Positions 44,235-47,200 of a stretch of 62,181 bases of DNA are shown one piece after another; within the stretch, counting starts at the first letter, position 1, and every line of letters starts with the position of its first letter. The DNA lies in the NCBI GenBank assembly GCA_964622835.1, contig CAZUSA010000003.1:1-62181 (forward strand), read 5' to 3'. A program made the position numbers and the translations under genes. The notes below the pieces were generated by a model. It saw only the letters and a program-made list of their open reading frames with translations. It had not been told where the DNA came from and ran no database searches. Source of the DNA: Candidatus Woesearchaeota archaeon (GTDB lineage: Archaea > Nanobdellota > Nanobdellia > SCGC-AAA011-G17 > UBA489).

Positions 44235-47200
44235 ATGCATAGGAAACAGAAATGGTCTTCACAAACTAGTAATAGTAATAGTAGAAAAGTACTGTTATAC
44301 AGATTAACAAAATACTACAGATGCTATAAGGTGGATGACTCGGCTTGGAGAGCGATGAAGGGCGTGGCAAGCGACGAAATGTTCTGGCGAGGCGCATGCA
44401 GCTGTTGAACCAGAAATTCCCGAATAGGACTTCCTGTCTTATGACAGACCGCAAGGTCGGCGCACCCGGGGAAGTAAAGCGTTACAGTACCCGGAGGAAA
44501 AGAAATCAAACGAGATGTTGTTAGTAAAGGCGATTGAACACAACACAGGGCAAACTGAATCTTCTTAGAAATAAGTAAGACATGTGGTGTTGCAGGACTC
44601 GTTTTTAGCCTGAGTATCAAGATGCAAACACTGTTGGAAAACAGGACGATAAAGGGTGATAGTCCCGTAGCAGAATTGATGCAGGTGTACGAGTATCCTG
44701 AGTAGGATGCATTGGAAATTGCGTCTGAAACTGGGAGGCATCAACTCCTAACTCTAAATATATTCCAAGTCCGATAGCGTATAGTACAGTGATGGAACGT
44801 TGAAAAGGACTCGTAACAGAGAGTCAAAAGATCCTGAAACCTTATAGTGATAGAGCGATACGGCATTTCGGTGTTGTATCGTACGTTTCGAATAACGGGC
44901 CAGGGAGTTCATGTCTGTGGCAAGGGTAAGTGGTTACGCCACGTACCCAAAGGGAAACCAATTGTCCGCAGTTTACGAGGGACATGGTATTAAAATGCCA
45001 CGAGTCACAGGTATGTTACCCGAAACCGGTCGATCTAACCTACAGCAGGATGAAGCGAACTTGATCGTTCGTGGAGGTCCGAAGCGGTGCTGTGTGCATG
45101 CGTTCGTGTGACTGTTGGTTAGGGGTGAAAAGCTAATCGAGATCGGTAATAGCTGGTTCCTGCCGAAATACGCCTAAGTGTAGTCTTGACTGAGTTCGCC
45201 TATATGGTAGAGCCACGGATTTGTGATTTTGGGGGGGAAACCCCTCGGTCACTTGTTCAACTCCAAATGTGTAGGCTGCGTAGAAGTCAGGAAAAAGGGG
45301 CGCTGGGGTAAACTTGCGTCTCTATAGGGGAACAACCCTGTTTGTGGTTAAGGTCCCAAAGTATGTGCTCAGTGTTAAAGGCTGAAGGGAGTGGATGGCC
45401 CGAGACAGATGGGAGGTATGCCTAGAAGCAGCAATCCTTTAAAGAAAGCGTAATAGCTCACCATTCAAGGTCATTTGCCCCGAAAATGGACGGGGCTAAG
45501 CACGTCACCGATACCACAATTCTCAGAAATGAGTAAGGTAGGCAGGCGCCGCGCGTGGGCAGAAGCGTTCGTGTAAGCGGATGTGGACCGCGTGTGGATG
45601 AGAATCCTGGTAGTAGTAGGATCTGTATACGGTGAGAATCCGTAATGCCGGAAGCCCAAGGGTTTCTTCGCAATGTTCGTCAGCGAAGAGGTAGTCGGTC
45701 CTAACCCGTGGCCTAATTGGTCGAGTGGGAAGGGGAAACAGGTTAATATTCCTGTACTATGTATGTACGCGTGGCAACACAAGGTTGTGTTTCGACACGT
45801 GAGGCTAGACCAACACGCATTGTCGTGTGTGTTAACGAAAACAGCATCGGTAAGTATCGTCATGATGAGACCCGGTGTAAGTTCGGATGAGCAGTCCTGT
45901 GGATTGTTTGGTTAATGCCTGGCGTCCGTGAAAAGAAATACAGCAAGGATCATACATATCCGTACCAAGAACCAACACTGGTGTGGCTAGCTGAGAAAGC
46001 TCAGGCATGAAGGTTTAAACTAGTTTAGGGAATTCGACAGATTAGCCCTGTGCCTTCGGTATAAGGGGTCCCTGCGTTTGTATGGTTTCCATGCGAATAC
46101 AGGGTTCAAAGATCAAGGGGCTCCGACTGTTTAATAAAAACGTAGCGTTTCGCTAGTCTGCAAAGATGTGTATGGAACGTGATATCTGCCCAGTGCCTGT
46201 ATCTCAAACTCTCTTCCAAGGGAGCTAAGGACAGGTAAACGGCGGGAATAACTATGATTCTCTTAAGGTAGCGCAATACCCTGCCGTTTGAATGACGGCT
46301 TGCATGAATGGTATAACGAGGGTCCCATTGTCCCAAACTAGTGTCCTCTGAAAATACTGTACTGGTGTGAAGGCCAGTGACCTCCAGTGGGAAGCGAAGA
46401 CCCCATAGAACTTTACTACAGCTTGTCGTTGTGATATAATATAGAGTGTATAGCATACGTGGGAGTTGCTTGAAGCCATCTCGTTAGGGATGGTGGAGAC
46501 GTCAGTGTAATACCACGCTCTTTGTGTTGTATCGCTAACTCATTACTATGAGAACATCGACTGGTGGGTAGTTTGGCTGGGGCGGCACCCTGCTGAAATG
46601 GTATCAGTAGGGCCCAAAGGTAAGCTCATCCGGTTTAGAAATCCGGAGTAGAGTGCAAGAGCAAAAGCTTGCCTAACTGAGTTCCAACCGTTACGGAATT
46701 CAGAGACGAAAGTCTGGTCTAGCGAACCCCTATGTCCTTATTGATGAGGGCTAGGTATGACAGAAAAGCTATCTTGGGGATAATTGAGTTGTAGCGCCTA
46801 AGAGTTCAAATCGACGGCGCTGCTTGCTACTTCGTTGTCGGCTCTTCGCATCCTGGAAGTGCACAAGCTTCCAAGGGTACGGGTGTTCACCGGTTAAAGC
46901 GGATCGTGAGCTGGGTTAAGAACGTCGTGAGACAGTTTGTATGATATCTACTGGGGGTGTTAACGTCTGAGTGGAAGGATCTTTTAGTACGAGAGGAACA
47001 AAGGTTCGGTGCCTCTGGTCGATCAGTTGTCCGACAGGGCAGGCTGAGCAGCTACGCACCAAGGGATAAGCGCTGAAAGCATCTAAGCGCGAAACCCGCC
47101 GCGAAAAGAGACGGAGAGTGCTTATAGAACATAAGGTTGATAGGATTGGGGTGTGCGTGCCAAGGCAACGAGGCATTTAGCCCGCAATTACTAATCACTC

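Follow-up and report, generated by a model that had tools for sequence, protein, structure and literature searches.

How far can the peptidyl transferase center (PTC) of a ribosome depart from bases that nearly all life holds constant? The question is raised by a 23S (large-subunit, LSU) rRNA gene on contig CAZUSA010000003.1 of a “Candidatus Woesearchaeota” archaeon (DPANN; assembly GCA_964622835.1), a stretch of 62,181 nucleotides that is referred to here in its entirety as the window. An earlier reading of the bare sequence (the original prediction) had pointed to several changes at near-universal PTC positions of this gene, among them U in place of C2452 and of A2503 (E. coli numbering). 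Our analyses make it probable that the gene encodes the functional 23S rRNA of a low-GC woesearchaeote and that, in this rRNA, an untouched catalytic core is surrounded by a shell of inherited substitutions; in the wider radiation to which it belongs, A2503U has recurred, position 2452 has flipped between C and U, positions 1782 and 2586 have covaried, and inhibitor-binding pockets are predicted to be altered.

Bases at the peptidyl transferase center

The 23S rRNA gene (44309 to 47214, plus strand) is full length and intron-free. It matched the archaeal LSU model of Rfam (RF02540) over model positions 1 to 2987 with 2487 bits (gathering score, 50) and is positioned 3′ of a 16S rRNA gene and a tRNA-Ala gene on a contig whose GC content outside the rRNA is 31 to 40%. 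Its closest 23S relatives (matches L011, L015, L007, and L008 of the scans described below), 87 to 93% identical, were titled Woesearchaeota or Nanoarchaeota archaeon and place it in this group. Positions were numbered by pairwise alignment to E. coli K-12 rrlH (2904 nt), in which the landmarks A2058, A2451, A2602, and U1915 were verified. A second E. coli copy with 3 extra upstream bases returned identical window bases once the offset of +3 was corrected, and alignment to the Rfam model, in which capital letters mark highly conserved and lower-case letters variable positions, served as a further check. By all three, the base calls and by-eye numbering of the original prediction at 2452, 2453, 2499, 2503, 2586, and 2608-2609 were exact.

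The reported changes fall within the central-loop strands of domain V (E. coli 2444 to 2614; 46776 to 46946, plus strand, as are all rRNA positions below). In the A-site cleft, U2452 (46784), which is C in both E. coli and the archaeal consensus, is followed by U2453 (46785), whose partner is U2499 (46831), a U·U replacing the bacterial A·C pair. U2503 (46835) stands where nearly all life has an A that acts as a nascent-peptide sensor and as the RlmN/Cfr target. Position 2586 (46918), elsewhere a pyrimidine, is A, and U1782 (46135), its neighbor in the tunnel wall, is its predicted Watson-Crick partner. The strand from 2606 to 2612 (46938 to 46944) reads UGUAUGA where the archaeal consensus is CGGuugC, which gives U2606 (46938), U2608 (46940), A2609 (46941), and A2612 (46944). 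Finally, A2069 (46407) would pair with U2442 (46774) instead of the consensus G-C, in what we take to be helix 74.

The rest of the center has the bases expected of a functional ribosome. The 5′ central-loop strand C2057 G2058 A2059 A2060 G2061 A2062 C2063 (46395 to 46401) is an ordinary archaeal one, with the C2057-G2611 pair and G2058 in their usual archaeal states and A2062 kept. G2061, C2063, G2447, A2450, A2451, U2504-C2507 (including U2506), G2583-U2585, and A2602 are all retained, as are the P loop (G2251-G2253) and the A loop (with G2553). Of the near-universal second-shell bases C2452 and A2503, neither is present; of the nascent-peptide sensor triad A2062/A2503/U2586, A2062 is retained, but the other two members are U2503 and A2586; and with U at 46835, the adenine that RlmN and Cfr require at 2503 is missing. 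The original prediction had assigned the remodeling to the A-site cleft, which holds for 2452 only: positions 2503, 2586, and 2608/2609 are part of the lining at the entrance to the exit tunnel, the site of nascent-peptide sensors and of the tetracenomycin pocket (PMC5499644; bioRxiv 10.1101/2022.08.09.503329).

These states differ in how unusual they are. In the Rfam archaeal consensus, C2452, A2503, U2586, C2606, and G2608 are capital letters, and the window's U2452, U2503, and A2586 are therefore not states common to archaea; a2453 and c2499 are lower-case. The pair U2453·U2499 had been called eukaryote-like, by comparison with yeast 25S rRNA. Both bases are indeed U in the window, but the pair is variable among archaea, which makes it unremarkable and leaves no special link to eukaryotes. 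Published conservation values are 100/100 for C2452, 99.59/98.31 for A2503, 99.17/99.41 for A2059, and 99.59/82.39 for A2453, the last being listed at 82% across domains (PMC7345174). The high conservation that had been claimed for C2452, A2503, and U2586 is thereby borne out for the first two and not for the third, since most bacteria carry C2586 and U2586 is the proteobacterial state (bioRxiv 10.1101/2024.10.31.621234); what is unusual at 2586 is the purine, not the loss of U. Over domains V and VI, the window 23S rRNA deviates at 35 of 317 capital-letter consensus positions.

Distribution and history of the changed states

A scan of 185,579 GTDB species genomes (one per species) for U2503 with conserved flanks matched only 16 contigs. 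Fourteen of these were archaeal 23S rRNA of the Woesearchaeota/Nanoarchaeota type, one of them titled only “bacterium,” and their origins include Lake Baikal, Saanich Inlet, and groundwater. The other two were bacterial, a goat-caecum Clostridia metagenome-assembled genome (MAG) and a Bacillus draft genome (L012 and L016); each has a lone U2503 amid an otherwise canonical bacterial PTC and may represent an error, one variant operon, or a real mutant. A metagenome scan in which 2499 and 2503 were left free and lineage flanks were required yielded at least 119 contigs, of which at least about 45, drawn from numerous different samples, were archaeal relatives. About 73 of the metagenome matches listed were of bacterial type (for L031 and L037, Rfam confirmed a bacterial LSU) and provided a control, all being canonical at C2452 and A2503. 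This bacterial-type set (in the range L022 to L137, e.g., L037, L079, and L080) has GCUAC at 2494 to 2498 and uniformly C2452, A2453, A2503, and C2586; several of its loci lie on contigs of 0.8 to 1.4 Mb and are probably from bacteria like those of the candidate phyla radiation (CPR/Patescibacteria). All counts of relatives given below refer to 46 archaeal sequences, or subsets of them, among the matches listed from the two scans, and, for other archaeal phyla, state frequencies were taken from the Rfam consensus and one published table.

Read at 2452, 2453, 2499, 2503, and 2586 in that order, the relatives form consistent haplotype groups. CUUUA, the uniform haplotype of what we call the big U2503 clade (20 to 21 sequences), was found in at least 20 sequences; UUUUA, the window type, in at least 10, four GTDB species included; UUUAA in at least seven; CUUAA in at least five; UUUAC in at least three; and UUUUC in at least one (L005). 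The 10 sequences of the window clade are uniformly U2452/U2453/U2499/U2503/A2586, and the closest relatives of the window gene carry exactly this haplotype. With 2503 free in the metagenome scan, its matches listed included no close canonical A2503 paralogue of the window clade, the nearest A2503 sequence being 82% identical to the window 23S rRNA. Across the super-clade, U2452 occurs in 20 of 46 sequences, A2586 in 41 of 45, U2499 (free in the pattern) in all archaeal relatives, and UGUAUGA at 2606 to 2612 in nearly all members; U2453, U2499, A2586, and the rewritten 2606-2612 strand are common to the whole radiation. The original prediction of a single remodeled lineage was thus right in that the states are lineage-specific, but they do not make up one haplotype: changes at 2452, 2503, 2586, 2059, and 2447 recur within a large radiation.

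Set against this variation is the constancy of the core. G2061, A2062, C2063, A2450, A2451, the P-loop bases G2251-G2253, the A-loop bases G2553-C2556, G2583-U2585, and A2602 are invariant in the 46 relatives, and U2552 is A in one of them; the segment 2495 to 2519 was fixed by the search pattern and is uninformative on core conservation. Such invariance marks a functional ribosome that is kept under purifying selection.

A neighbor-joining (NJ) tree of the 3′ 836 nt (664 columns, the positions under study being masked; 200 bootstrap replicates) places U2503 at three spots, namely the window clade, the big U2503 clade, and L005. The window clade (200/200) is sister to the A2503-bearing L068 and L098 (178/200 for the window clade with L068), while the big U2503 clade (200/200) is sister to the A2503-bearing L055. 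Monophyly was recovered in 0/200 replicates both for the window clade with the big clade and for all U2503 sequences together, and L005 joined the window clade in 20/200. From these tree positions and the absence of monophyly, A2503U has at least two independent origins, and probably three. On the shared U2453·U2499/A2586/2606-2612 background, then, 2452 flips between C and U, and A2503U reached fixation separately in two clades or more, the window clade ending with both U2452 and U2503. Within the radiation, Fitch parsimony requires five steps at 2452, three each at 2503 and 2586, and two at 2447, against 176 of 235 comparably conserved positions that never change within the clade.

Further departures were seen in particular branches. 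A2059G (opposite window 46397) is present in 11 sequences (L003, L004, L009, L010, L014, L045, L057, L058, L089, L107, and L127), all of them belonging to one subclade within the big U2503 clade; base 2059 presumably stacks on base 2503. G2447C (GGGCAUAA; opposite window 46779) affects a core PTC base listed as 96 to 98% conserved and occurs in the separately placed L063 and L115, both of which have A2503. A GC-rich contig titled “Woesearchaeota” (L006, positions 6100 to 8000) carries a more aberrant PTC with G2448, U2452, G2453, U2497, and U2503; it is also altered at helix 93 and 2600-2601, and its LSU score of 800 bits is low for the matched length.

Mutual information for 2452 points to the 2069-2442 pair, and U2452 always occurs with A2069-U2442; because the association amounts to only one or two evolutionary events, a coupling is not claimed. 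Candidate partners of U2503 at about 2043/2625 and at window 47072/47088, which may be one pair, were rejected as not followed by L005 or as far from the PTC.

Tunnel wall, function, and competing explanations

Known from bacterial and eukaryotic structures, U2586 and U1782 form a noncanonical pair in the tunnel wall on which tetracenomycin X stacks, and mutations at U2586, U2609, or U1782 confer resistance to this compound (bioRxiv 10.1101/2022.08.09.503329). Among the relatives listed, the two positions covary: 1782/2586 is C/C in 4 sequences, C/A in 25, U/A in 9, and U/C in none. The states are ordered C/C, C/A, U/A, and U1782 is seen only with A2586, its carriers being the window clade together with L068, L048, and L110 (2586 is not covered in L110). 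In the window, U1782 and A2586 could accordingly form a canonical Watson-Crick U-A pair. Changes at 2609 are found only in lineages with C2586; this, together with the covariation, argues that the wall evolves as a unit and not by decay. A survey of drug-binding residues in bacteria, in which U1782C/U2586C characterizes Thermus and most bacteria, likewise documents lineage-wise variation of this pair (bioRxiv 10.1101/2024.10.31.621234). There, however, the pair is pyrimidine-pyrimidine, whereas here a purine occupies 2586 and the pair is C·A and then U-A.

Most of the changed positions tolerate mutation in E. coli. In integrated synthesis, assembly, and translation (iSAT) reactions, A2503U retained a relative activity of 0.79, higher than with either alternative base at 2503 (G, 0.28; C, 0.01), and values for the other changes were 0.80 for U2609A, 0.78 for G2608U, 0.57 for A2453U, 0.47 for U2586A, and 0.42 for C2606U (supplement of PMC7049736). 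Bulk synthesis proceeds without the nucleobases of A2062, A2503, and U2586, but these are required for drug-dependent stalling, in which the nascent peptide is relayed via an A2062(N6)-A2503(N7) contact (PMC5499644). Bulk peptide synthesis should persist in the window lineage, since most of the changed positions are mutation-tolerant, while U2503 would be unable to form the hydrogen bond that N7 of A2503 provides to A2062 in the same way, and methylation of an adenine at C2 or C8 of 2503 would be impossible.

Substitutions identical to C2452U, A2453U, C2499U, A2503U, G2608U, and U2609A are each documented to confer resistance: C2452U to anisomycin, sparsomycin, tiamulin, and chloramphenicol; C2499U to sparsomycin; A2503U to pleuromutilins, phenicols, 16-membered macrolides, and linezolid; G2608U to an oxazolidinone; and U2609A to klebsazolicin. 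As the original prediction had stated, halophilic archaea are among the sources, with C2452U and C2499U conferring resistance to sparsomycin in Halobacterium (PMC13462262) and C2452U and A2453U to anisomycin in Haloarcula (supplement of PMC7049736). By analogy with these alleles, the pockets for anisomycin, sparsomycin, pleuromutilins, and phenicols in the A-site cleft, and those of the tetracenomycin X and klebsazolicin type at the tunnel entrance, would be altered; a lower sensitivity to inhibitors of both sites is likely, and the intrinsic drug resistance that had been suggested is plausible.

Several points weigh against our reading of a working center with inherited substitutions in its shell. 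C2452U retained only 0.02 of activity in E. coli iSAT (supplement of PMC7049736) and causes biogenesis defects in yeast; yeast, Haloarcula, and Thermus nonetheless survive with this change, and because of this disparity the effect of U2452 appears context-dependent. Where E. coli agrees with the capital-letter archaeal consensus, the window gene deviates at 20 of 253 positions (8%) of domains V and VI, and part of the PTC changes may be mere fast evolution of a divergent 23S rRNA. Since this 8% applies throughout domains V and VI, an enrichment of changes in the PTC ring is unsupported: the ring is struck not more often, but at positions that belong to a far more conserved class. Because almost all tolerated PTC substitutions have been isolated as resistance mutations, the match to resistance alleles carries a bias. 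No column of domains V and VI changes alike in all U2503 clades, as a compensatory partner would. In addition, the metagenome sample is bounded by the flanks of the search pattern, and its frequencies apply within this flank class, while the phylogeny is an NJ tree of 664 columns from a single gene.

What could have produced such a gene without it being the functional rRNA of its lineage is error: of consensus or assembly, of a chimeric contig, or of a decaying extra rRNA copy mistaken for the working one. Metagenome contigs, rRNA assemblies included, can be chimeric, and the sporadic U2503 of the Clostridia MAG and the Bacillus draft could be erroneous. The changed states, however, recur in more than 40 independent assemblies over both scans (at least 10 window-clade sequences and more than 20 of the big clade, obtained in different projects), the full-length score of 2487 bits is on par with those of relatives (2562 and 2485), the catalytic core is invariant, and no close A2503 paralogue was present among the matches listed, all of which makes an artifact highly improbable and disposes of consensus error. 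Granting a working rRNA, one may ask whether the changes at 2452, 2503, 2059, 2447, and 2586/2609 were selected as intrinsic resistance by natural ribosome-targeting compounds or peptides of neighbors or hosts. Selection acts easily on a single-copy rRNA operon, each change equals a published resistance allele, A2503U arose at least twice and G2447C twice, A2059G is confined to a U2503 clade, and 2452 took its five parsimony steps while most comparably conserved positions stood still; moreover, A2503U and U2586A are A/U transversions, which AT mutational pressure cannot explain. Yet for these uncultured archaea neither an inhibitor nor a producer nor a phenotype is known, the catalogue of resistance alleles is skewed toward viable PTC changes, 2452 switches in both directions and looks as near-neutral as selected, and the reduced-genome bacteria in the same scan, which probably share the habitat, lack any such changes. 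Adaptive resistance is possible and, on balance, doubtful.

Relaxed constraint has a somewhat stronger claim, although we would still not call it probable: small-genome, host-dependent DPANN archaea might lose or simplify nascent-peptide sensing, letting 2503, 2586, and 2609 drift to the most tolerated base. That the changed positions are mutationally flexible in E. coli, with A2503U best tolerated at its site, that A2503 and U2586 are dispensable for bulk synthesis (PMC5499644), that the rRNA is divergent overall, and that U2503 has no compensatory partner in domains V and VI all fit such drift. Less easily accommodated are the wide occurrence among relatives of C2452U, which E. coli does not tolerate; the stability of states in large clades; the canonical states of the reduced-genome bacteria; and the way in which 1782 follows 2586 to a canonical pair, which indicates purifying or compensatory selection, not decay. 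Compensation of a broader kind would have a lineage-specific change elsewhere (in a loop of uL3, uL4, or uL22, in a lost rRNA modification, or in the 2606-2612 strand) render U2452 and U2503 necessary or harmless. The matches listed have U2503 and U2452 only on an A2586, U2608/A2609, A2612 background and U2452 always with A2069-U2442; the 1782-2586 covariation shows a co-evolving wall, and the consequences of C2452U differ strongly with context from one organism to another. Against this stand the one or two events behind the 2069/2442 association, the lack of any domain V-VI column tracking U2503 in all clades, and a window that encodes no ribosomal proteins, and we regard compensation as unlikely. 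Beyond our preferred reading of a conserved core within a shell of inherited substitutions, and speculatively, the DPANN radiation could serve as a natural experiment on the PTC shell, its pattern recording an arms race with natural ribosome inhibitors on a single-copy rRNA and the A2062-A2503 relay being dispensable in free-living cells; we put this forward as a rather improbable conjecture.

Relation to known systems and the surrounding locus

The closest counterparts of the window gene are alleles selected in the laboratory, which comprise identical changes at identical positions: C2452U, C2499U, and A2453U in Halobacterium, Haloarcula, yeast, and Thermus; A2503U in Mycobacterium smegmatis and Mycoplasma gallisepticum; and G2608U and U2609A. 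Like most of the organisms that yielded them, this lineage probably has one rRNA operon. In contrast to those alleles, the changes here are natural and ancient, occur together in a single molecule, and have become fixed in many species. Ribosomes carrying m2A2503 or m8A2503 (RlmN/Cfr) have in common with the window that the same tunnel-entrance nucleotide governs several drug classes. A2503 is the target of both enzymes, as the original prediction had it; U2503, however, leaves no adenine to methylate, and the change is genetic, not enzymatic. Rare PTC variants in Thermoproteota likewise represent a lineage-specific departure from a nearly universal PTC in an archaeal phylum (PMC9976906), but they concern other positions in another phylum, and that paper makes no mention of 2452, 2503, 2586, or DPANN. 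A literature search found no description of PTC variation in Woesearchaeota or DPANN, and, while bacteria and eukaryotes have been surveyed systematically for drug-binding residues, it found no such survey for archaea.

Both C2452 and A2503 are regarded as universal bases, the latter being also the textbook example of a nascent-peptide sensor and a hotspot of drug resistance. A large group living with U at one or both positions offers a natural test of why they are conserved (catalysis, regulation, or drug binding), extends lineage-dependent variation of drug-binding residues to Archaea, and supplies evolution-vetted haplotypes for ribosome engineering. Anisomycin, sparsomycin, and tetracenomycin X, used as “universal” or archaeal translation blockers, may fail on these DPANN archaea, which is relevant to enrichment and co-culture.

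Group I introns are uncommon in archaeal rRNA. The window gene lacks a 290- to 720-nt insertion that many relatives carry at E. coli ~1931/1932 (opposite window 46270), namely L005 (2248 to 2535), L010, L015, L030, L041, L057, L072, L115, and L122; that of L005 was identified by Rfam as a group I intron (RF00028, 53.9 bits). L050 has three domain V insertions, near E. coli 2449/2450, ~2535, and ~2590, one of them within a PTC strand, and L066 and L122 diverge beyond E. coli ~2593; these are probably further introns. A hairpin-forming insertion of ~35 nt in the helix 89 loop region (opposite window ~46805) was seen in L017, L036, and L087, part of the big U2503 clade.

The 16S rRNA gene of the locus (39759 to 41225, plus strand; Rfam RF01959, 1410 bits) is separated from the 23S rRNA gene by a spacer of 3 kb (41226 to 44308), unlike the compact 16S-tRNA-23S order of L003 and L005. 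The spacer contains tRNA-Ala(UGC) (41934 to 42009, plus strand; ARAGORN and Rfam) and three open reading frames (ORFs), two of which (41338 to 41907 and 42081 to 42773) had no match in a Pfam search, while the third (42793 to 43581, minus strand) encodes an HhH-GPD glycosylase. Neither a 5S rRNA nor genes for uL3 and other ribosomal proteins near the PTC were detected in the window. Immediately 3′ of the 23S rRNA gene lies a PD-(D/E)XK/Cas4-like nuclease (47288 to 48151, minus strand), just downstream of which is a small SET-domain protein (48226 to 48666, plus strand), and an archaeal RNase P RNA begins at 61858 and is truncated by the end of the window (61858 to 62181).

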